Below the pieces are notes generated by a model. It was not told the DNA's origin and did no database searches. It worked only from the letters and a program-made list of their open reading frames with translations. From the NCBI GenBank assembly GCA_964556545.1, contig CAZKWE010000092.1:9213-73212 (forward strand): a stretch of 64,000 bases of DNA. The letters are read 5' to 3'. This DNA is from an uncultured Campylobacteraceae bacterium. GTDB lineage: Bacteria > Campylobacterota > Campylobacteria > Campylobacterales > JALSKU01. The position numbers and the translations under genes are program-made. Position 1 is the stretch's first letter. Every line of letters begins with the position of its first letter. This document shows, piece after piece, positions 31,843 through 59,504 of this stretch.

Positions 31843-32379
31843 TTATTGATTATTGTATTTATCCCATTTCTCTTTAAAAGTCGAAATTTCAGTAGCTAAT
31901 TTATCCAATGTTGCATCATCCATTTTTTGTAAAAGTCCATACATAACATAATTTCTTCTTTTACCTGTTTTAAAGTCATGTAATTGTTTTAAAATAAATT
32001 CTTTGGACTTACCCACAAGATTCGGTCCTATAATACCCCTGCCGTTTACACCATGACAAGAAGAACAATTTTGTTTATAAAGTCTACTTACTTTAAATGC
32101 CGCAATATTGCCTGCTTTATTTTTTAAAGCTTGAAGTTTTTTATCTAACTCTTTATTTTTGTTTTCCAACTGTTTTTTGGCTTCTGCAGCATTATCCACA
32201 CTGTTTTGCACCTCTTTTTTTGCAACTACAGGTTTGTTAAGATGCACCTTTATCTCAGAAGATTTTATAATCCTGTGAATAGTTTGAAGCTTGTGAACTT
32301 GCTTGTCAAGTGAATACATATAATATGAAGCCCATAAAGCCAATATTGTTGCAATCGCCGCTATGATATGTTTTATCAT
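31843..32379 (-). CDS. nosC2: monohaem cytochrome c NosC2
   Basis: 178 aa, N-terminal membrane anchor, single CSSCH haem-binding motif. Its position matches the Wolinella-type nosC1-nosC2 pair. Confidence 0.7.
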   Translation of the reverse strand: MIKHIIAAIATILALWASYYMYSLDKQVHKLQTIHRIIKSSEIKVHLNKPVVAKKEVQNSVDNAAEAKKQLENKNKELDKKLQALKNKAGNIAAFKVSRLYKQNCSSCHGVNGRGIIGPNLVGKSKEFILKQLHDFKTGKRRNYVMYGLLQKMDDATLDKLATEISTFKEKWDKYNNQ

Positions 32380-32975
32380 TTTCCATTCCTTAATTTTAGT
32401 AATTTTGCATTGAAGTCAGCTATCTCATTAGCGATAGCTTTTAGTTTTGCATCATCCATTTGTGATACAAGACCTTTCATAAGTACATTTTTTCTTTTGC
32501 CGGATTTAAAGTCCATCAATCTGCCATATACAAAATCCCCGCTCTTTCCAAGCAAGGACGGCCCTATGATACCGTTACCGTAATCATCATGACAGGCAGA
32601 GCAGTGAACTATAAAATCATGGCTTAATTTATTTACCATAAGATTTATCTTTATCCTTTCATAAGGAGATCTGACATGCAAATATGCATCTATGGTCGTT
32701 CTTTGCTGTTTAGTATCTTCTTGATACTTTTCAATTGCCTTAGCCTCTTTTGATTTATCCTCTTCATTATAAGAGTAGTAATATTGACCTCCGTTTTGTT
32801 TTGAAATCTCTTTTGATTTATCCTCTTTTTTAACTGCATTTTTAGTAACTTTAATACCCGAGATATTGGTTACTACTTGATGATTGTCGGCTTTTTCTTC
32901 TTTCTTTTTTTCTCCGCATCCGCTTAAAAATACAATACTTGCCAAAGATAAAGCAATTAATCCTGTCTTATGCAT
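32376..32975 (-). CDS. nosC1: monohaem cytochrome c lipoprotein NosC1
   Basis: CSACH haem motif. Start moved to ATG 32975 (MHKTGLIALSLASIVFLSGC, lipobox), overlapping the nosG stop by 8 nt. Track start 33032 would overlap nosG by 65 nt. Confidence 0.7.
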   Translation of the reverse strand: MHKTGLIALSLASIVFLSGCGEKKKEEKADNHQVVTNISGIKVTKNAVKKEDKSKEISKQNGGQYYYSYNEEDKSKEAKAIEKYQEDTKQQRTTIDAYLHVRSPYERIKINLMVNKLSHDFIVHCSACHDDYGNGIIGPSLLGKSGDFVYGRLMDFKSGKRKNVLMKGLVSQMDDAKLKAIANEIADFNAKLLKLRNGK

Positions 32976-33759
32976 TTTTGCTCTCCCCGTATATTTGTTT
33001 ATATGTAGCTCTTGGTACGATTTCAAGCACATTGGTAGGACAAAGCTCTACACAAGCTCCACACCCGACACATGCTTCTCTTATTTGAGGTAATTTGCCG
33101 GTTTTATGATCGACCATACCTATAGCTAAAGAAGGATCCGGTATAAAAGGACACATGTCTGCACATATCGTACACTCCTCTCCTTCAAATTTTTCAAGTT
33201 TTTTAAGTACCTTTTTTTGAAGTACATATTTTTCAGGATCATTTGGATTGTCTATAACCTTTTTATTTTCTCTCTCCTCTTTGGTGAGAATTTTGGTATG
33301 ATCGTAAATTCTGTCTATTGCACTTCTTGGAACTTTTTCATTTTTTTGTGCAAGACAGGCATTTGGTCTTTTAACTATGGCTACACCCATATGAACTTTA
33401 TCTATACTGTCACTTTCATGATCAAGAGCACCTGTAGGACATGCCAATATACAAGGAAATGCTTTGCATAGGTAGCAACCTCTATCCCTGGGAATGATAA
33501 ATGCAGTTCCCAAGCCGGCTTTTCCTTCCACATCTTCAAGTTTTATACAGTCATAAGGACAAACCTGCAGACACTGTCCGCACTTGATACAAAGAGATAG
33601 ATAGTTTTTCTCCGGAACCGCTCCCGGAGGTCTTAATCTCTTCTCTTTTGGCTTAAAATCAGGTGCTACGGCAATTCCGCCGGCAGCAACAACTCCAAGT
33701 ATTCCCAGGCTTGTAGCCTTTTTTATAAAATCTCTTCTTTTCTTTTCTTCTGGTGTCAT
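32968..33759 (-). CDS. nosG: NapG-like periplasmic polyferredoxin NosG
   Basis: 263 aa. Twin-arginine signal (KKRRDFIKKATSLG) and four CxxCxxCxxxCP-type clusters. Confidence 0.8.
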   Translation of the reverse strand: MTPEEKKRRDFIKKATSLGILGVVAAGGIAVAPDFKPKEKRLRPPGAVPEKNYLSLCIKCGQCLQVCPYDCIKLEDVEGKAGLGTAFIIPRDRGCYLCKAFPCILACPTGALDHESDSIDKVHMGVAIVKRPNACLAQKNEKVPRSAIDRIYDHTKILTKEERENKKVIDNPNDPEKYVLQKKVLKKLEKFEGEECTICADMCPFIPDPSLAIGMVDHKTGKLPQIREACVGCGACVELCPTNVLEIVPRATYKQIYGESKNA

Positions 33760-35003
33760 AGTATTTTACTCTCTTCCATAATAGGGTGTTTATCTTCCAA
33801 CAATTTAACCGGCTCGGATATAGGAGCCAATTTTGCTATAAAGTTCAGTATGGATATTACCGGAGATCCATAAAAAAACCTTATATTTGGATTTAAAAGC
33901 CAAACTTTATCCGCATACTGATAGTATATATAAGGATTATCCCCTATACCATCACCATTTTTGTCAAAACCTTCATAATCATCCCAATAGTTTCCATCCC
34001 ATAAATTTTGAGTTACTTTTCTATTGAAAGAATCATTTACAATATTATCCATGTTGCCTTTTATTATATTTTTTTTAAATATATTAGCGATACTCAAAGA
34101 GTGGAACTTTACCGCAATAGAATTATACAACAATCTGTTATTTTCTATATAGTTATGTGTTCCGGGCTCAAAAGGTGACCTGTCTATAAAAAATCCTCTT
34201 GAACAATATATAATAGTATTATCTTTTATAGTAAAATTCGAACTGTCTTTCAATCCTATCCCAAGTCCTGTGGTTCCCATAGAATTTTCTATCAGATTTC
34301 CGTATGCTTCACTGTCTTTGGAATACATAAAGTAAATCCCTACGGAGTTATGCTTATAAACATTATCTTTTACTATATTTTTACCCGCATACATAAAATG
34401 TAAAGAGTATCTTCCGTATTCGCCTCTGTTTTTTTCTATCAAATTCCCATGACTGTACCAAACGACAAAATCTCTTGATTTGTACAGATAATTGCCTCTT
34501 AAGATATTGTCATTACTGTACCAAAGTCTTACTCCGTCTCCTCTAAGTCCAAGAGAAAACTTTTTGGAAGTAATATAATTATCCAATATCCTGGAATTGC
34601 TTACCATTTGAAGGTCGATTCCAAACAGACAATCCAATATTCGATTGTTTTTAATCAAAACATTTCTTATCAAAGTATCGTTTGAGCCATGTGCATTTTT
34701 AACCGATATGCCGGCATCTACTCTTTCATGCTCCTTTCCGCTGTGCCTTATTGTTAAATTTTCAATAGTCACATTTGAGCTTTTTATAGATATAACAGTA
34801 CCTTTCCCGTCACCTTCTATTATTGCTTTTTGATTCTTTCCGTCAATAATTATAGGTTTGTTTATAACTATATTACCCTTGTATATACCTGCCGGCAATT
34901 CAAGTTTTGAACCTGGCTTTGCATTATTTATAGCTTCTTGCAATACATTTTTTGCCAATAATTCAAGTGACAACAACATAAGAGCAATAACTATATTTTT
35001 CAA
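33756..35003 (-). CDS. nosD: nitrous oxide reductase maturation protein NosD
   Basis: 415 aa, signal peptide, repeated parallel beta-helix (PbH1/CASH) units. Lies between nosB and nosG. Confidence 0.8.
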   Translation of the reverse strand: MKNIVIALMLLSLELLAKNVLQEAINNAKPGSKLELPAGIYKGNIVINKPIIIDGKNQKAIIEGDGKGTVISIKSSNVTIENLTIRHSGKEHERVDAGISVKNAHGSNDTLIRNVLIKNNRILDCLFGIDLQMVSNSRILDNYITSKKFSLGLRGDGVRLWYSNDNILRGNYLYKSRDFVVWYSHGNLIEKNRGEYGRYSLHFMYAGKNIVKDNVYKHNSVGIYFMYSKDSEAYGNLIENSMGTTGLGIGLKDSSNFTIKDNTIIYCSRGFFIDRSPFEPGTHNYIENNRLLYNSIAVKFHSLSIANIFKKNIIKGNMDNIVNDSFNRKVTQNLWDGNYWDDYEGFDKNGDGIGDNPYIYYQYADKVWLLNPNIRFFYGSPVISILNFIAKLAPISEPVKLLEDKHPIMEESKIL

Positions 35004-35004
35004 T

Positions 35005-35808
35005 TTATGCCTCTTGTTTTTCAGCTTTGATTCTTGATATTATAGCCAACAGTGAAAGAAGGCTTATACCTATAAGCACCCAAAAACCCCATGTAGGATA
35101 TGAATGTGTTGTAAACTGGGCAACTTTACCATCACCAAAAACCGTAGGAGTAAACGGTTTTATTTTAAAGGCTCCCCATGCATGCATATGATGACCGAAC
35201 CAATAAAGCCAATATGCATAAAATCCCAAAAATATAACTGGCAATGCAACAGGTATAAACATCAGTATGTTCAATATCTTGCTATCATAAAGTATAAAAT
35301 ATACCAAAAGCAGTGATAAAAATACCAAAGCATAAGGAGCTATCATTCTAAGATAAGGTGCTCCTCTTTTCATAGGATCCATACCTATAAAGTGATTGAT
35401 AGTATTCATCTCATGAACATCTCCGCTAAATCCGTCAAAATGATAATATACGGGAATTCCCTCGGGAAATGCCTCTTTAGGATAGTTTGGAGCTTCAAGT
35501 GCAACATACCATATAGGAGCTGTTACTACATTCAACTCTGCATCATTTTTTATCATGTTCATCAAATGAACTTCACCTGTTTTCTTAAGGTCCTCTTTTA
35601 CTGCATCAGGTGCATTGGGACTTACATATCTTCCTTTTTGGTAAAAATTCCATGTTTTTGCCATCATAGGTGTTATCTTATTTACTTGGTCAGTTTCAAC
35701 CAAGTCTTGAATATTGTGTGTCAAAACTGCTGGTATAACAAACCAATACAGCAACATACCAAGAGCGATAAGTGCAAAAATCCTTGATTTGAGAAGGGTT
35801 TTGTTCAT
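35005..35808 (-). CDS. nosB: membrane protein NosB
   Basis: Polytopic membrane protein directly downstream of nosZ, as in the Wolinella-type cluster. Start set to ATG 35808 (MNKTLLKSRIF, preceded by AAGGAAAC), because track start 35847 lies upstream of the transcription start inferred from the FNR-type promoter. Confidence 0.65.
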   Translation of the reverse strand: MNKTLLKSRIFALIALGMLLYWFVIPAVLTHNIQDLVETDQVNKITPMMAKTWNFYQKGRYVSPNAPDAVKEDLKKTGEVHLMNMIKNDAELNVVTAPIWYVALEAPNYPKEAFPEGIPVYYHFDGFSGDVHEMNTINHFIGMDPMKRGAPYLRMIAPYALVFLSLLLVYFILYDSKILNILMFIPVALPVIFLGFYAYWLYWFGHHMHAWGAFKIKPFTPTVFGDGKVAQFTTHSYPTWGFWVLIGISLLSLLAIISRIKAEKQEA

Positions 35809-35865
35809 CTTAGTTTCCTTTATAAAATTTGAAAAGTATTCTATCATAATATTATTTATTCTTTA

Positions 35866-35879
35866 TTGATATTCATCAA
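35866..35879 (-). promoter_or_regulatory. CRP/FNR-family box TTGATATTCATCAA upstream of nosB
   Basis: Perfect TTGAT-N4-ATCAA. A -10-like TAGAAT (35843-35838, minus strand) lies 29.5 bp from the box centre, which is class II geometry. Confidence 0.65.
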
Positions 35880-35913
35880 GTCATAAAAGTGTATATTTAA
35901 GTAAATTATAAGA

Positions 35914-35940
35914 TTACACTCCGCAGTCTGCGGAGTGTAA
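35914..35940 (-). terminator. strong hairpin immediately after nosZ stop
   Basis: ttacactccgcag-t-ctgcggagtgtaa, 13-nt perfectly complementary arms 5 nt after the nosZ stop, followed on the minus strand by a T-rich stretch. Confidence 0.6.
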
Positions 35941-35945
35941 TTATT

Positions 35946-38549
35946 TTAGAATAGATTTGCGTTTTTATCTACCCATTTGAAGTATTCAATGATATCTTTA
36001 ACTTGTTTCTTGCTCATACCCTGGTTAGGCATTCTAAGATTGAAGTAATGAATCATTGAGCTAACATAAGGCTCATTATACATTTTTTCAGGATTAAGTA
36101 TCCACTCAGTTACCCATTTTTCACCGTTAGGATGTCTTTGAAGAACACCTGTCAAGTCCGGACCTGAACTTACTTTTCCTATAACATGGCATCCGCCGCA
36201 TCCGCCTTCGTCAAATGCTATCTTACCTCTCTTGGCCGCTTCACTCATAGGAGTAGCTAACTTACTAACAAGAAGATCTCTGGCTCTAATACCAACATCT
36301 GCAGTTTTAACCATATATTGCCAAATCATATTTTCAAACAGAATTGCTTTTTCAATATCTCCGGCTTTTAGAGCTTTATCGGACAACTCTTTTTGTTTTT
36401 TGATTTTACTGTACTGATCAAGTGCATCAACAACCAAGTTTTTAACAACCGGATATTTCTCATAGTGATTCTCTTTTAAGAATTTAACGACACTTTGGAT
36501 AACTTTATCGGTTGCATTGTTAACGGCAACTGTTTTCTTGTACTCTGCCATCAACTGTTTCTTGCTCATTTTTGCTCTGTGAATTTTCTTAGCACTTACA
36601 TATTTTTTGTTTGGATCTTTAACAAGCAAGTATCCCATCATTTCAAGGTGAAGTGCAGAACAGAACTCAGTACAGTAGTAAGGGAAAATACCCTCTCTGT
36701 CAGCTTTAAATGTAAGAGCTACGGTTTTACCAGGCTCTAAAGAAGCATGAACATTGTACTGATCTACTGTAAATCCGTGAGTCTCATCTTCAGCTCTTTC
36801 AAGGTTTGTTAGATAAAATGTTACCGTATCTCCGAGATTTACATTTACATGTTCAGGATTGATATGGCTTCTTACCAAAGTTCCATAAACATAAACATGT
36901 TTACCTTTTCTCACGATTCTCTCTTGTCCTGCAAGAGTTTTACCTCTATGAGGCTTGTCTGTAAAAGGATTGTATCCCATTTTATATCTAACATAAGGCT
37001 TGATCTTGCTTGCTCTGATGGCAACTGCCTGGTGAGGCTCACCAAGACCTATTGGTAGATCGTAAAGCATTTGCATTTTTTTGCCTCTTATATCAATAAG
37101 CTGATGGTTTTGAGGATGCAAAGGTCCGATTCTATCAAATCTGTCTATTGATAACTTGTTTAATGCGATTATATAATCACCCTGAGGATCTTCGGATTTA
37201 CCTTCCATACCGCAAAGGTGACCTATGTTGTAGTTAACATTTATTCTATCTGCAACTTTACAAGTTAGATAACTCCATTTTACAACTTGGCTGTCAACAT
37301 AAAGTGAAGTGTATATTTCACCGGTTTTTTTCCAATGTTTACCTATTTGGTTATGCAATGGTCCAAGTCCCAACTCTGCTTGACAATGTAAAGCTTTTTT
37401 CATATCAAGAATCGGAATACCAAACGGGTCTTTTCCGACAAACTCTTTATTTTTAAAAAGTTTCATCATTTTTGCAAAATCATAAACTGAAGCATGGGTA
37501 TCAAGTTTACCGCAAACTACTACATACTTTCCATCAGGTGTAACATCAACACCGTGTGGTGATTTTGGCTCAGGAACCAAGAAAAGACAGTTGTTTTTTA
37601 CAGCTACATCAATAGGTATAACTTTCATACCGTTAATGACTTTTACATTTTTTGGATTTTCTGCAAGTTTTGCAAGTTTTTTCCAGTTATATACTTGTAA
37701 AAAGTCCGTATCGTTTCTTGAACATCCTGCTTCAAAAGGAGGAAGACCTTTTTCGATACCGCCTGTATACATTTCAGAGTTAAAACTGTTTGTAAAACCC
37801 CATCCGTAACTTGCCTCTTTACCTGCATCTGAAAGATCTTGCATATACGGAGGAAGTTCAAGTGTAAAAGATTTTTTTACATTTATCTTTCCTGTTTTGT
37901 TATTAAACTTCCAAATTGTCACACCGCCTCTGTAAGAATCAACATACTCACTCATAGGATGCCAATTGTTATCCAACGGTGCCGCATACTGACAAGCTTC
38001 CAAGATATATTCACTATTTGGAGTAAAGAAAGCTCCACCGTGATCACTTTTGAAAACCGGGTTTACAACTATTTGCTTTGTAACAAAGTCTTTCAAATCA
38101 ATTACAGCGATTCTCGGATTGGCTTTATCATTGATAACAAGCCATTTTCCGTCATATTTTCCGTTTGTTTCAGAGAGTCCCGGGTGGTGAGTATCACCCC
38201 ATGTTATCTTTTTGCCCCTTATATTACCTTCGGCAAGAATCTTTTTGGTATCATCATCATAACCCCATCCCTGCCAAGGCTCCGGAGTAAATACACCTAT
38301 ATACTTTAGTATCTTCATAGAAGGTACGCCGTAAACCATCATTTGTCCGGCTTGACCGGTCGAACTGAAAACCAAGTACTTGTCTCTACCGCCGCTTGGC
38401 AGATAAGTTTTTGCTGCCGCAAGCAAATCTTGCTGGGTAAGATGCCTCTCTTTCATAACTTTCTCAAGTTCACTTTGAGCTGAAAGCAAGGTCATACCCA
38501 CCATTGTACCTAATGCAACGGTAGCTACTTTTCTAACCATTTGCTTCAT
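35946..38549 (-). CDS. nosZ: clade II nitrous oxide reductase with C-terminal cytochrome c domain (cNosZ)
   Basis: 867 aa. Sec-type signal peptide, DTHHPG CuZ-region motif, CuA site YCTEFCSALHLEMMGY, C-terminal CGGCH haem c motif. Confidence 0.9.
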   Translation of the reverse strand: MKQMVRKVATVALGTMVGMTLLSAQSELEKVMKERHLTQQDLLAAAKTYLPSGGRDKYLVFSSTGQAGQMMVYGVPSMKILKYIGVFTPEPWQGWGYDDDTKKILAEGNIRGKKITWGDTHHPGLSETNGKYDGKWLVINDKANPRIAVIDLKDFVTKQIVVNPVFKSDHGGAFFTPNSEYILEACQYAAPLDNNWHPMSEYVDSYRGGVTIWKFNNKTGKINVKKSFTLELPPYMQDLSDAGKEASYGWGFTNSFNSEMYTGGIEKGLPPFEAGCSRNDTDFLQVYNWKKLAKLAENPKNVKVINGMKVIPIDVAVKNNCLFLVPEPKSPHGVDVTPDGKYVVVCGKLDTHASVYDFAKMMKLFKNKEFVGKDPFGIPILDMKKALHCQAELGLGPLHNQIGKHWKKTGEIYTSLYVDSQVVKWSYLTCKVADRINVNYNIGHLCGMEGKSEDPQGDYIIALNKLSIDRFDRIGPLHPQNHQLIDIRGKKMQMLYDLPIGLGEPHQAVAIRASKIKPYVRYKMGYNPFTDKPHRGKTLAGQERIVRKGKHVYVYGTLVRSHINPEHVNVNLGDTVTFYLTNLERAEDETHGFTVDQYNVHASLEPGKTVALTFKADREGIFPYYCTEFCSALHLEMMGYLLVKDPNKKYVSAKKIHRAKMSKKQLMAEYKKTVAVNNATDKVIQSVVKFLKENHYEKYPVVKNLVVDALDQYSKIKKQKELSDKALKAGDIEKAILFENMIWQYMVKTADVGIRARDLLVSKLATPMSEAAKRGKIAFDEGGCGGCHVIGKVSSGPDLTGVLQRHPNGEKWVTEWILNPEKMYNEPYVSSMIHYFNLRMPNQGMSKKQVKDIIEYFKWVDKNANLF

Positions 38550-41453: not shown

Positions 41454-41681
41454 TTATCCCTTTGTCATGCACTCTTTGGAACAGTAGAATTTTCCATTTT
41501 TTATAAAAGCTTCTTTTGAAGATATAAAAGTTCCGCATTCACAACACTCAACCATCTCTTCGCTATCATTATCATCTTTTTTGAAAGATTTGCTATCTTT
41601 TGATGCTATATTTTTTTCTTTAAAAAACAGTATATAGACCGCATAGACAATCACACCGAAAATTAACCATTTTAATATCAT
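41454..41681 (-). CDS. small membrane-anchored protein with C-terminal Cys-rich (zinc-ribbon/TRASH-like) motif
   Basis: 75 aa. N-terminal TM helix, then CCECG...(x15)...YCSKEC. Confidence 0.5.
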   Translation of the reverse strand: MILKWLIFGVIVYAVYILFFKEKNIASKDSKSFKKDDNDSEEMVECCECGTFISSKEAFIKNGKFYCSKECMTKG

Positions 41682-42223
41682 TACACACCTTTTATATAAA
41701 TATATCTTCTGTTATTGTTTTGTATCATATCATATTTTATATTATCCAACTCTTTTGTGACACTACTTCCTTTGTAAAGAAGAAGTTTTGTTTTTTTATT
41801 CAAAAAATTTTTTGAAAGCTTTAACAATACATTGGTATCCGTTACCGCCCTTGAAACTATCAAATCCACAAAAAACACTTCGCACTCTTCTACTCTTTTG
41901 CTTAAAACAGTTACATTTTTCAACTCAAGTCTGCTTTTTGCCAAATGCAAAAAAGAACTTTTTTTCTTTATGGGTTCAAGCAAAGTTACTTTTTTTTCAG
42001 GATAAAAAAGAGCTATGATAAGCCCGGGAAATCCTGCTCCGCTTCCTATATCAAGGATATTTTGATGATTTTTCAAAAATTTTACAGGATAAATACTGTC
42101 TTTAATATATTTTACAATATCTTCTTTACTCTTAACTCCGCTGATATTGTGGACTTTATTGTATGAAAGCAAAAGTTCGCAAAAAATATCTATCTTTTCG
42201 TCAAGCTTTATATCGGTTATCAA
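41681..42223 (-). CDS. rsmG: 16S rRNA (guanine527-N7)-methyltransferase RsmG
   Basis: 180 aa, SAM-binding motif ILDIGSGAGFPGL. TTG start preceded by AGAGGTGA. Confidence 0.8.
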   Translation of the reverse strand: MITDIKLDEKIDIFCELLLSYNKVHNISGVKSKEDIVKYIKDSIYPVKFLKNHQNILDIGSGAGFPGLIIALFYPEKKVTLLEPIKKKSSFLHLAKSRLELKNVTVLSKRVEECEVFFVDLIVSRAVTDTNVLLKLSKNFLNKKTKLLLYKGSSVTKELDNIKYDMIQNNNRRYIYIKGV

Positions 42224-42240
42224 TTCTCACCTCTTTTTTA

Positions 42241-42510
42241 AGTACTCAACCAAAAGAAACCCCGATTAATAGAAGCTCAAAAAAGCTGCATTTACAAGGT
42301 GAAAAACTCGCAGTCGTATTTGTTATACTTCAAGAGTTTTGAGCGTTGTAAATGCAATTTTTTTGAGCTTCCCTTCGGGCACAAAGATAACGGCACGATT
42401 ACAATGCTCAGATTTGCTTGAATTACCTACGGGTAGTCCTGCACAAATCTGCTTCGTACTCATACCGTTCTTTTTATGCTATTAATCGGGGTTTCTTTTG
42501 GTTGGGTACT
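42241..42510. repeat. 270-bp inverted-repeat-bounded, highly structured intergenic element (MITE-like element or structured RNA)
   Basis: 32-nt terminal inverted repeats (42241-42272 agtactcaaccaaaagaaaccccgattaatag; 42479-42510 ctattaatcggggtttcttttggttgggtact), 31/32 complementary. Nested 24-nt inverted repeat (42274-42297 / 42346-42369). TA dinucleotide on both flanks. Confidence 0.6.
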
Positions 42511-43076
42511 TATAGCAAATGACCCATTTTCTCTTTTTTTGTCTTAAGATACTCTTTGTTATATCTGTTTGACTCCATTATGATAGGTACTCTTTCGGTA
42601 ATTTCTATATCTTTTAAACTTTCTATCTTTTTTGGATTGTTTGTTAAAAGTTTAATTTTTCCGATACCAAAATAATTCAATACAAATTCAACCATTTCAT
42701 AACTTCTTTCATCATCACTAAAACCAAGTTGATGATTGGCTTCAACCGTATCGTAACCGCTATCTTGCAAGGCATAGGCATTTACCTTGTTTAGCAAACC
42801 TATATTTCTTCCTTCCTGCCTTAGATATATAACCAACCCCCCATCTCGTGCAATCTTTTTTAATGAATATTCAAGCTGATCTCTACAATCACACTTCAGG
42901 CTTCCTATGGCATCTCCGGTCAAACACTCGCTATGTACTCTAACAAGAGGAGTATCACCAAAAGGCTCTTTAAATATAACCAAATGCTCTTTTTCCCTCT
43001 GCTTAAAAGCTATTATCTTAAATATGCCGAATCTCGTCGGAAGATTTGCCCGTTTTGAAACTTTTATATCTTTCAT
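42510..43076 (-). CDS. ribA: GTP cyclohydrolase II
   Basis: 188 aa. Zinc motif SLKCDCRDQL, plus LRQEGRNIGL and the NNPKK motif. Confidence 0.85.
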   Translation of the reverse strand: MKDIKVSKRANLPTRFGIFKIIAFKQREKEHLVIFKEPFGDTPLVRVHSECLTGDAIGSLKCDCRDQLEYSLKKIARDGGLVIYLRQEGRNIGLLNKVNAYALQDSGYDTVEANHQLGFSDDERSYEMVEFVLNYFGIGKIKLLTNNPKKIESLKDIEITERVPIIMESNRYNKEYLKTKKEKMGHLL

Positions 43077-58526: not shown

Positions 58527-58894
58527 GGGAGTGACTTGGCTTCGACAGGAACAGACAAGCTTGAGGTTCATGCCGGTTTGAACAATACCGCAAAAATGTT
58601 CCGTTAAAAATAAACGCAAACAATACAAATTACAGACCTGCGCTCGCTGTAGCGTAATAGCCTAACGGCTCGGTCAGTCATTTGGGTTTCCTGCTATCGG
58701 AAGCCTATTTGGCTTAACACTTTTGATAGCTTGAGATAAAAGGTGTCCTACTTTTATCTGACATTTTGGACTGAGAGTTTTCTATCTTGCAAATGGGTAG
58801 AAAACTTGAAACTTTTTCATTTGCACCAAGCATGTAACAAGACCTCTTGTGAGTCTGTTTTTGGACAGGGGTTCGATCCCCCTCACTTCCACCA
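58527..58894 (+). ncRNA. ssrA: tmRNA (SsrA)
   Basis: 5' GGGAGTGACTTGGCTTCGACAGG and 3' GGACAGGGGTTCGATCCCCCTCACTTCCACCA (tRNA-Ala-like acceptor/T-arm with CCA). Internal tag ORF GCA AAC AAT ACA AAT TAC AGA CCT GCG CTC GCT GTA GCG TAA TAG = ANNTNYRPALAVA**. Confidence 0.93.
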
Positions 58895-58907
58895 ATTTTC
58901 TATCAAA

Positions 58908-59504
58908 ATGGAGCAAATTTTGTATCTTAAGACTATATTTTCTTTATCATTGATAATCATTTTTAGCGGATGCCAAACCTCTCAAAACACACTGACATTA
59001 CCCAAAAAATATCAAAACCGAACCCGGGATAAAAGTTCTCTTCAAAATAATCAAAACTATACATATACCGAACAAACTGCTTTTTATGCTCCAAAAATTA
59101 AAAAAAATATTTTACTACCTACAAATAAAAACTTACAATTTTACGGTAGCGGCTACATAAAAGGAATTCTCAAAAGTATATATTATGACAAAAATAAACA
59201 CAAGTGGATTTATTATATAAAAGGTACGGACTTGTCAAACGGAAAATTAAATAGTGCCAAAGTCTATGCCATAAAAAAATCAGGACACATAAATGATTTT
59301 GTATATGCAATTATAAAAGACGGATATATAAAATCAATCTACATCTATAAATCTTCAAAAAATTACACATTAAAGAAAAAAAGAAAAATAATTAGAAAAA
59401 ATAAGAAAAAAAAGATAATTCACAAAATTTATAAAAAAAGCCCTAAAACAATGCATAGAAAGCAAATTATAAGTGCTCCGAAAGTACAAACGGTTACTTT
59501 TTGA
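58908..59504 (+). CDS. lipoprotein with Lys-rich C-terminus, unknown function
   Basis: Start set to ATG 58908 (MEQILYLKTIFSLSLIIIFSGC, lipobox). The upstream part of track ORF 58743 overlaps the tmRNA gene and is rejected. Confidence 0.55.
   Translation: MEQILYLKTIFSLSLIIIFSGCQTSQNTLTLPKKYQNRTRDKSSLQNNQNYTYTEQTAFYAPKIKKNILLPTNKNLQFYGSGYIKGILKSIYYDKNKHKWIYYIKGTDLSNGKLNSAKVYAIKKSGHINDFVYAIIKDGYIKSIYIYKSSKNYTLKKKRKIIRKNKKKKIIHKIYKKSPKTMHRKQIISAPKVQTVTF

Follow-up and report, generated by a model that had tools for sequence, protein, structure and literature searches.

The 270 bp that lie between ribA and rsmG in the window analyzed here (i.e., the whole 64-kb stretch of DNA) are very probably a copy of a non-coding, TA-flanked MITE in an uncultured, hydrothermal-vent member of the Campylobacterota, and the family to which this copy belongs is previously undescribed, yet an ordinary kind of element. 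Bacterial MITEs such as Correia/NEMIS and RUP are marked by terminal inverted repeats (TIRs), TA termini, insertion both between and within genes, and transcripts that are extensively base-paired (PMC2229807; PMC10969869). The first-pass annotation of this DNA, made from the letters alone, had offered two readings of the element, namely a TA-duplicating MITE and a plus-strand structured RNA antisense to the flanking operon, and it is the former that our analysis bears out, with empty sites in related genomes, copies at unrelated loci, a TA at every observed element end, and one gene interrupted. RsmG homologues place the host among uncultured Campylobacterota, the nearest named relatives by SufE homologues being Nitratifractor, Sulfurovum, and Hydrogenimonas (about 70-76% identity), and hydrothermal-vent metagenomes are the source of several related contigs.

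Our inverted-repeat search recovered paired arms at 42239-42272 / 42479-42512 (34 nt, 97% complementary), i.e., the 32-nt TIRs plus a TA on each side. The TIR pair is 31/32 complementary, with a lone mismatch where T42246 stands opposite G42505, and the TIRs are conserved in each of the other copies described below (L009, L010, L011, and L017). No other inverted repeat in the 64-kb window comes close to the element in strength; the element is single-copy there, and shuffles gave an expectation of 0 chance matches to a 26-nt TIR core. The coordinates that had been given for the 270-bp element, its TIRs, the flanking TAs, and the 1-nt overlap with the ribA stop codon all hold, as do those of the CAGATTTG/CAAATCTG stem and of the CCCTTCGGG hairpin; the inner inverted repeat, originally described as 24 nt (42274-42297 / 42346-42369), is real and longer, as listed in Table 1. 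We also asked whether hairpin 1 could be a second MITE nested in the first and rejected this, as its borders (TAG/AAGCTC ... GAGCTT/CCC) carry neither a TA nor a direct repeat.

Table 1. Features of the element in the window, its flanking genes, its copies elsewhere, and the double base-pair changes that distinguish the L009 copy from that in the window (window positions unless a locus or alignment columns are named)
Feature	Position	Strand	Details
Whole element	42241-42510		270 bp; sits between ribA and rsmG
TA, left copy of putative 2-bp target-site duplication	42239-42240		Assigned from sequence
Left terminal inverted repeat	42241-42272		32 nt, AGTACTCAACCAAAAGAAACCCCGATTAATAG; inverted-repeat search; conserved in L009, L010, and L017
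Internal hairpin 1	42272-42371		Arms 42272-42309 / 42334-42371, 38 nt, 84%; 24-nt apical region; inverted-repeat search and MFE structures
Short junction hairpin	42371-42379		CCCTTCGGG; plus strand reads c(UUCG)g; identical in L009 and L017
Internal hairpin 3	42379-42478		Imperfect; includes CAGATTTG/CAAATCTG stem; inverted-repeat search and folding
Stem CAGATTTG/CAAATCTG	42409-42416 / 42444-42451		Part of hairpin 3
Hairpin 3 apical part	42422-42437		ATTACC-UACG-GGTAGT
Right terminal inverted repeat	42479-42510		32 nt; last base is third base of ribA stop codon; conserved in L009 and L011
TA, right copy of putative target-site duplication	42511-42512		First two bases of ribA stop TAA, minus strand
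ribA (GTP cyclohydrolase II)	42510-43076	-	Pfam PF00925 GTP_cyclohydro2, 5.8e-58; upstream gene of the pair
rsmG (16S rRNA m7G527 methyltransferase)	41681-42223	-	Pfam PF02527 GidB, 4.1e-43; TTG start
rsmG Shine-Dalgarno-like AGAGGT	42229-42234		Outside the element
L009 full copy	L009:3948-4220		92.7% identical; between YfdX-family and response-regulator genes
L010 left end	L010:4860-4951		...CCCGTTGG-TA-AGTACCC...; up to contig end; within short ORF downstream of sufD-sufE
L011 right end			...GGGTACT-TA-TAGCTCC...; 3' end of AMP-binding enzyme gene
L017 copy	L017:4417-4539		ENA sample ERZ27262694; SufE 100% identical to that of L010; same insertion
Double change, TIR stem	columns 26/249		G-C to A-U
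Double change, hairpin 1	columns 50/117		G-C to A-U
Double change, hairpin 3	columns 163/219		A-U to G-C
Double change, hairpin 3	columns 178/206		G-C to U-A

The ribA-rsmG spacer of related genomes, a comparison the first-pass annotation had proposed, provides the empty sites. In the closest relative (L003, RsmG 80% identical), a single nucleotide separates the ribA stop from the rsmG start (...CACTTGATATAAAATGG...), and the two are likewise 1 nt apart in L012 and L013 (RsmG 75% identical), while in the window these genes are now 286 nt apart. The element takes in the last base of the ribA stop codon (42510-42512), and the TTG start of rsmG lies outside the element as well as the Shine-Dalgarno-like sequence does. 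With the element and one TA taken out, the window reads ...TTGCTATAAAAAAGAGG..., in which the conserved HL(I/L)-TAA end of RibA is kept; this deletion (also written ...CATTTGCTATAAAAAAGAGGTGAGAATTG...) leaves a 14-nt spacer with the Shine-Dalgarno-like sequence inside it. Deleting both TAs, by contrast, would destroy the ribA stop codon. Since RibA ends in ...HL(I/L)* with a TAA in the empty-site relatives L003 and L012, the TA at 42511-42512 is host sequence. The 1-nt spacing in relatives together with the outcome of this deletion therefore indicates that a tightly packed ribA-rsmG pair was the ancestral state, and that the lineage of the window gained 270 bp and one TA.

Proteins identical to the RibA and RsmG of the window are encoded in an NCBI MAG (GCA_054029715.1), in ENA sample ERZ27262694, and in Logan assemblies, and wherever those contigs span the ribA-rsmG spacer the element is identical; the Logan contigs end 30-38 nt into the element, approaching it from either side. 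In a further relative (L004, GCA_054029835.1, RsmG 72% identical), the spacer holds a gene for a 271-aa KilA-N domain protein (L004:1661-2476) instead of the MITE, so this junction has been hit independently by different insertions. Another relative (L014, GCA_027038235.1), in which synteny with ribA is lost, carries different nested inverted repeats upstream of rsmG (L014:2395-2856), including 38-nt arms (87%, 340 nt apart), 31-nt arms (87%), and 51-nt arms (75%), and these look like an unrelated MITE-like element.

Copies at other sites, which the first-pass annotation had named as support for a MITE, were found at three further unrelated loci, so that four distinct insertion sites are now known, and these other copies are about 93-98% identical to the element in the window. 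Our scan of JGI metagenomes for exact matches to GGGGTTTCTTTTGGTTGRGTAC returned three loci, all of them in metagenome Ga0256914 and all MITE-sized. The complete copy among them (L009) has the ends ...TTTA-TA-AGTACCC...GGGTACT-TA-TATAC..., and at another locus (L011) the ORF for the AMP-binding enzyme (at least 536 aa) reads into the element past its complete C-terminal domain. The copy downstream of sufE (L010/L017) cuts a SufT-like FeS_assembly_P gene (PF01883) after codon 31. In three relatives (L018, L019, and L020) the gene that follows sufE is intact, encoding 117-122 aa with the PF01883 domain, and the site reads ...CCCGTTGA(C/T)ATATACAA..., which demonstrates that this copy interrupts a SufT-like gene; the disrupted allele is present in JGI, ENA, and NCBI data alike. 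We also considered L010 and L011 as two halves of one insertion and rejected this, as their joined flanks restore no SufT-like frame and the flank of L011 is the end of the AMP-binding gene. ERZ27262694, which holds the SufT-like insertion, also has a contig identical to the ribA-rsmG region of the window, and with both insertions in one sample the window's own population carries at least two copies. Within one population the element has thus split the ribA-rsmG pair and knocked out a SufT-like gene of Fe-S assembly, and it is a real source of genome change there.

Searches with nhmmer element profiles of the loci we fetched and of the window revealed no diverged full copies. Two weak fragments resembling the apical part of hairpin 3 (...AAATTTTCTTGAATTAnCTA..G.TA.TCCTGCAAA...) were seen at L009:2602-2696 (minus strand; nhmmer E 0.026) and L016:156-228 (plus strand; E 0.57); the two share an upstream ATATCAGGG and form no stable fold (z about 0), and either the decay of a related element or chance similarity may account for them. 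Short-read contigs of five assemblies end inside the element, 30-168 nt from its ends (L002, L007, L008, L010, L011, and L017), as fits a 32-nt inverted repeat or a multi-copy element that breaks de Bruijn graphs, and the element thus explains why short-read assemblies of this host break at these points. Because assemblies break at the element, its copy number is probably under-counted in MAGs, and with four insertion sites known the copy number is either low or under-sampled through such breaks.

A TA is present at all of the observed element ends (6/6). At the SufT-like site, the TA at the left end of the element aligns with host bases (GTTGGTA, vs GTTGATA in the intact orthologues), so that the host-derived TA is at the right end at the ribA stop and at the left end at the SufT-like site. 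A 2-bp TA target duplication is the simplest reading of these ends, and as the genomes that offer empty sites stand at some distance (75-84% protein identity) we infer it from comparison rather than reading it from an isogenic pair. A 3-bp TAA/TTA duplication of the PIF/IS5-like kind was rejected, since the flanks are inverted and not direct; a TA plus the first base of the TIR fits better. To the right of the element, the TA is followed by a second TA at all three sites where this side is seen (TATAG, TATAT, and TATAG; window 42511-42516, L009:4219-4224, and L011:48-53), and at the fourth site the SufT-like orthologues that are intact have GATATATAC. These sites, a very small sample, suggest a preference for a TATA target that is asymmetric relative to the orientation of the element.

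The element has stops in all six frames, and its only ORF with an ATG start (46 aa, 42323-42463, minus strand) is frameshifted in the L009 copy. Its concatenated six-frame translation matched nothing among 5.8 billion predicted proteins at E values up to 10. Searching for an autonomous element with matching ends, we obtained 0 matches to two exact TIR patterns in 185,579 GTDB species genomes and 0 matches to one such pattern in IMG/VR; these are exact-match scans, which would miss diverged ends. BLASTN in its distant mode gave no match in the PLSDB plasmids and INPHARED phages, and within the 64-kb window there is no second TIR pair. As neither a partner transposase nor an IS with matching ends was found, it is by target duplication only that a family can be assigned. 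IS5/IS427-type enzymes make a 2-4-bp, TA-containing duplication. A preference for TA is documented in the IS630 family, for ISY100 (PMC2170065) and for RUP/IS630-Spn1 (PMC2229807), and by analogy with these the TA duplication of our element points to a partner of the IS630/Tc1-mariner kind.

Under this mechanism, a transposase encoded elsewhere would bind both 32-nt TIRs and excise the element by cut-and-paste chemistry; the element would then be inserted at a TA dinucleotide with a 2-bp stagger, and repair would leave a TA on either side. The enzyme would most likely be a TA-targeting DDE transposase of the IS630/Tc1-mariner kind, and less likely one of the IS5/IS427 type, since TA targeting is a signature of the former and it is on this basis that we infer mobilization in trans. 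The element sits exactly at the stop codon of ribA, and its insertion separated the two genes of a tightly packed pair. The 1-nt spacing in relatives suggests that ribA and rsmG are co-transcribed, and if this is the case their mRNA would contain a Y-shaped fold (about -125 kcal/mol) lacking a terminator-like U tract. In Neisseria, NEMIS transcripts form long stem-loops that are cut by RNase III and that modulate neighboring genes (PMC2229807), and by this analogy effects on ribA/rsmG read-through, processing, or translation coupling are plausible.

The strength of this fold also bears on the second reading offered by the first-pass annotation, in which the element would be a free-standing gene for a structured plus-strand ncRNA antisense to ribA-rsmG. 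For a 280-nt stretch the folding energy is -126.8 kcal/mol when the plus strand is folded and -128.5 for the minus strand, against about -58 for shuffles (z -14.8 and -13.8). Hairpin 3 folded alone gives a z of -3.3. A very stable fold (z about -14), two UNCG-type terminal loops on the plus strand, c(UUCG)g and c(UACG)g, and a TIR mismatch that becomes a G-U pair on that strand are all as expected of such a gene, but the minus strand of the window copy folds as well or better (-125.5 vs -123.8 kcal/mol for the plus strand, with 7 vs 5 G-U pairs), and in the L009 copy the plus strand has -125.6 kcal/mol vs -122.9 for the minus strand, with 5 G-U pairs on each. The hint of a plus-strand RNA is thus unsupported, because both strands fold equally well. 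The first-pass annotation had noted that the TIR mismatch and one of the mismatches in the inner repeat would be G-U pairs on the plus strand; this is correct for both positions named. The second inner mismatch, however, is C-A in a plus-strand RNA and pairs as G-U in a minus-strand one, and the inner repeat has one G-U and one C-A on either strand. The plus strand, with its UNCG loops, is antisense to the flanking genes at 3/4 sites, and this speaks against its acting as a read-through RNA.

The failure to match the element to any known RNA family, also recorded in the first-pass annotation, was repeated in our Rfam scan. Scanned in full with Rfam 15 at its gathering thresholds, the window gave a single match, a tmRNA, and none in the element; ARAGORN likewise reported only this tmRNA in the window. 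Relaxing the Rfam search to E values up to 10 for positions 42000-42750 gave only sub-threshold matches to miRNA-hairpin models (28 bits vs a gathering score of 90), and long hairpins of any kind draw such matches to miRNA-precursor models. Neither a sigma-70-like promoter nor an intrinsic-terminator consensus was found in or at the element, and no IHF site or outward promoter was detected within it. The sequence is missing from the orthologous spacer of relatives, the element occurs at scattered, unrelated sites, one of them inside a coding gene, and always with TA flanks, a distribution unlike that of an RNA gene, and long near-perfect helices that extend to the very ends are typical of TIR elements and untypical of RNA genes. 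With these observations on one side and the fold and loops on the other, we regard an ncRNA gene at this position as very improbable, and the TA-flanked MITE is the reading that we retain.

Outside the element, the tmRNA gene lies at 58527-58894 on the plus strand (RF00023, 149.6 bits; also found by ARAGORN) and encodes the tag peptide ANNTNYRPALAVA; a mechanically called ORF (58743-59504) overlaps it, and the 5' end of this ORF is probably spurious. The window also contains part of a nitrous-oxide reductase (nos) cluster (32376-38549, minus strand) with an 867-aa NosZ-like protein (nos_propeller, Cupredoxin) and downstream genes for NosD, Fer4, and cytochrome c proteins, including the ORF of a 218-aa CxxCH lipoprotein (32376-33032).

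Comparison of the window copy with the L009 copy identified 19 substitutions and one indel, and among these changes are four base pairs altered on both sides with their pairing kept, each in a different helix (Table 1). Two further changes are wobble-compatible, and 0 substitutions at paired positions break a pair. When 19 substitutions were placed at random in simulations, at least four such pairs arose in a fraction of 1.5e-5 of 200,000 trials, and slid registers gave 0 such pairs; a per-pair shuffle control gave 31/500, a figure that carries no information when there are two sequences per pair. Four double substitutions that keep their pairing (P about 1e-5 under random substitution) show that the arms of the element co-evolve. 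At one of these pairs (columns 50/117) the window has G-C, both L009 and L017 have A-T, and L010 has G-T, so that samples differ here even at the SufT-like site (A-T in L017 vs G-T in L010). Across what are two sequence lineages, the source of this co-variation is either selection for a folded single strand or templated (quasi-palindrome) correction of one arm by the other.

The first of these sources would make the element a MITE with a selected Y-shaped fold, the folded RNA or ssDNA being needed for mobility or for a function in host transcripts, such as an RNase III/processing site, an mRNA stabilizer, or an insulator; this refines the MITE explanation and does not exclude it. Four double changes in four helices, two wobble-compatible ones, no broken pair, the rarity of this outcome under random placement and its absence from slid registers, and both UNCG-type loops lying on one strand all agree with selection, and there is a precedent in the bcr1 repeats of Bacillus, in which a cruciform-like RNA structure is kept via compensatory changes (PMC3184786). 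However, the signal comes from essentially two sequence lineages, template-switch correction or arm-to-arm conversion would give the same pattern with no selection, the two strands fold equally well, the strand with the UNCG loops is antisense at three of the four sites, and the element contains no promoter-like site, and we therefore consider a selected fold rather unlikely. A cut-and-paste DDE transposase should need only the TIRs, and the pairing kept in the internal hairpins stays unexplained by it.

Arms that co-vary are also what would be expected of a folded single-strand substrate, and hence of a relic of a hairpin-dependent single-strand transposon, i.e., an IS200/IS605-type PATE or a RAYT-mobilized REPIN. 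Members of these families insert 3' of a specific 4-5-nt motif, and they are not known to have long TIRs at their ends or to make a target duplication. Our element starts and ends in a 32-nt TIR with a TA on both sides, and its 270-bp length and three helices set it apart from REP doublets, so we give such an origin hardly any probability. A broader proposal is that of a MITE class whose whole three-way-junction fold is under selection, that is mobilized or works as a folded single strand, that is without a recognizable parent IS, and that is confined to this lineage of vent Campylobacterota. The grounds for selection on the three-way junction are that each of its three long helices has compensatory substitutions and that one strand carries two UNCG-type loops; we judge this proposal, taken with all its parts, to be distinctly unlikely. 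As a TA-flanked MITE the element is only mildly unusual, in its Y-shaped fold with co-varying arms and in having no identifiable parent IS.

For annotation, these findings place an undescribed MITE family in a poorly studied, uncultured lineage of vent Campylobacterota. The finding is solid but ordinary, and long-standing questions are not opened by a MITE family of this kind.

Several known systems share features with this family. Like the Correia/NEMIS elements of Neisseria, it is small and non-coding, has long TIRs (those of Correia measure about 24-26 nt) as well as TA termini, and is inserted both between and within genes (PMC2229807). Unlike them, it belongs to another phylum and has no sequence similarity to Correia, it is longer (270 bp vs 100-155 bp), it folds as a three-helix Y and not as a single stem-loop, and it is known from at least four sites, with a copy number that seems low, whereas Correia elements are present in hundreds of copies. 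With RUP of Streptococcus pneumoniae and IS630-derived MITEs it has in common a TA on both sides, a non-autonomous structure bounded by TIRs, and the disruption of genes (PMC2229807). RUP is mobilized by IS630-Spn1, a link that rests on shared TIR similarity (PMC2229807), while our element has no IS with matching ends in any collection searched.

The two internal arms of the element resemble the fold of CIR in Caulobacter/Brucella, which consists of two long arms and a linker (PMC2229807). The CIR loop, in contrast, carries a conserved GANTC methylation motif, and our element adds a 32-bp terminal stem and TA flanks; how CIR moves is not settled in the literature (PMC2229807). REPIN/REP sequences and the palindromes of IS200/IS605 have short hairpins that bear a conserved tetranucleotide tag, and the element differs from them in its 32-nt TIRs with TA flanks, its 270-bp length, and its three helices. 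The bcr1 repeats of the Bacillus cereus group are MITE-like and have a cruciform-like fold kept by compensatory pair changes (PMC3184786), as in the element described here; bcr1 differs in its length (about 155 bp), in its 5-bp direct repeats in place of a TA, and in being unrelated in sequence and host. This family of vent Campylobacterota adds an example to the few MITE-like repeats of bacteria, bcr1 among them, that seem to preserve their structure and not only their termini.
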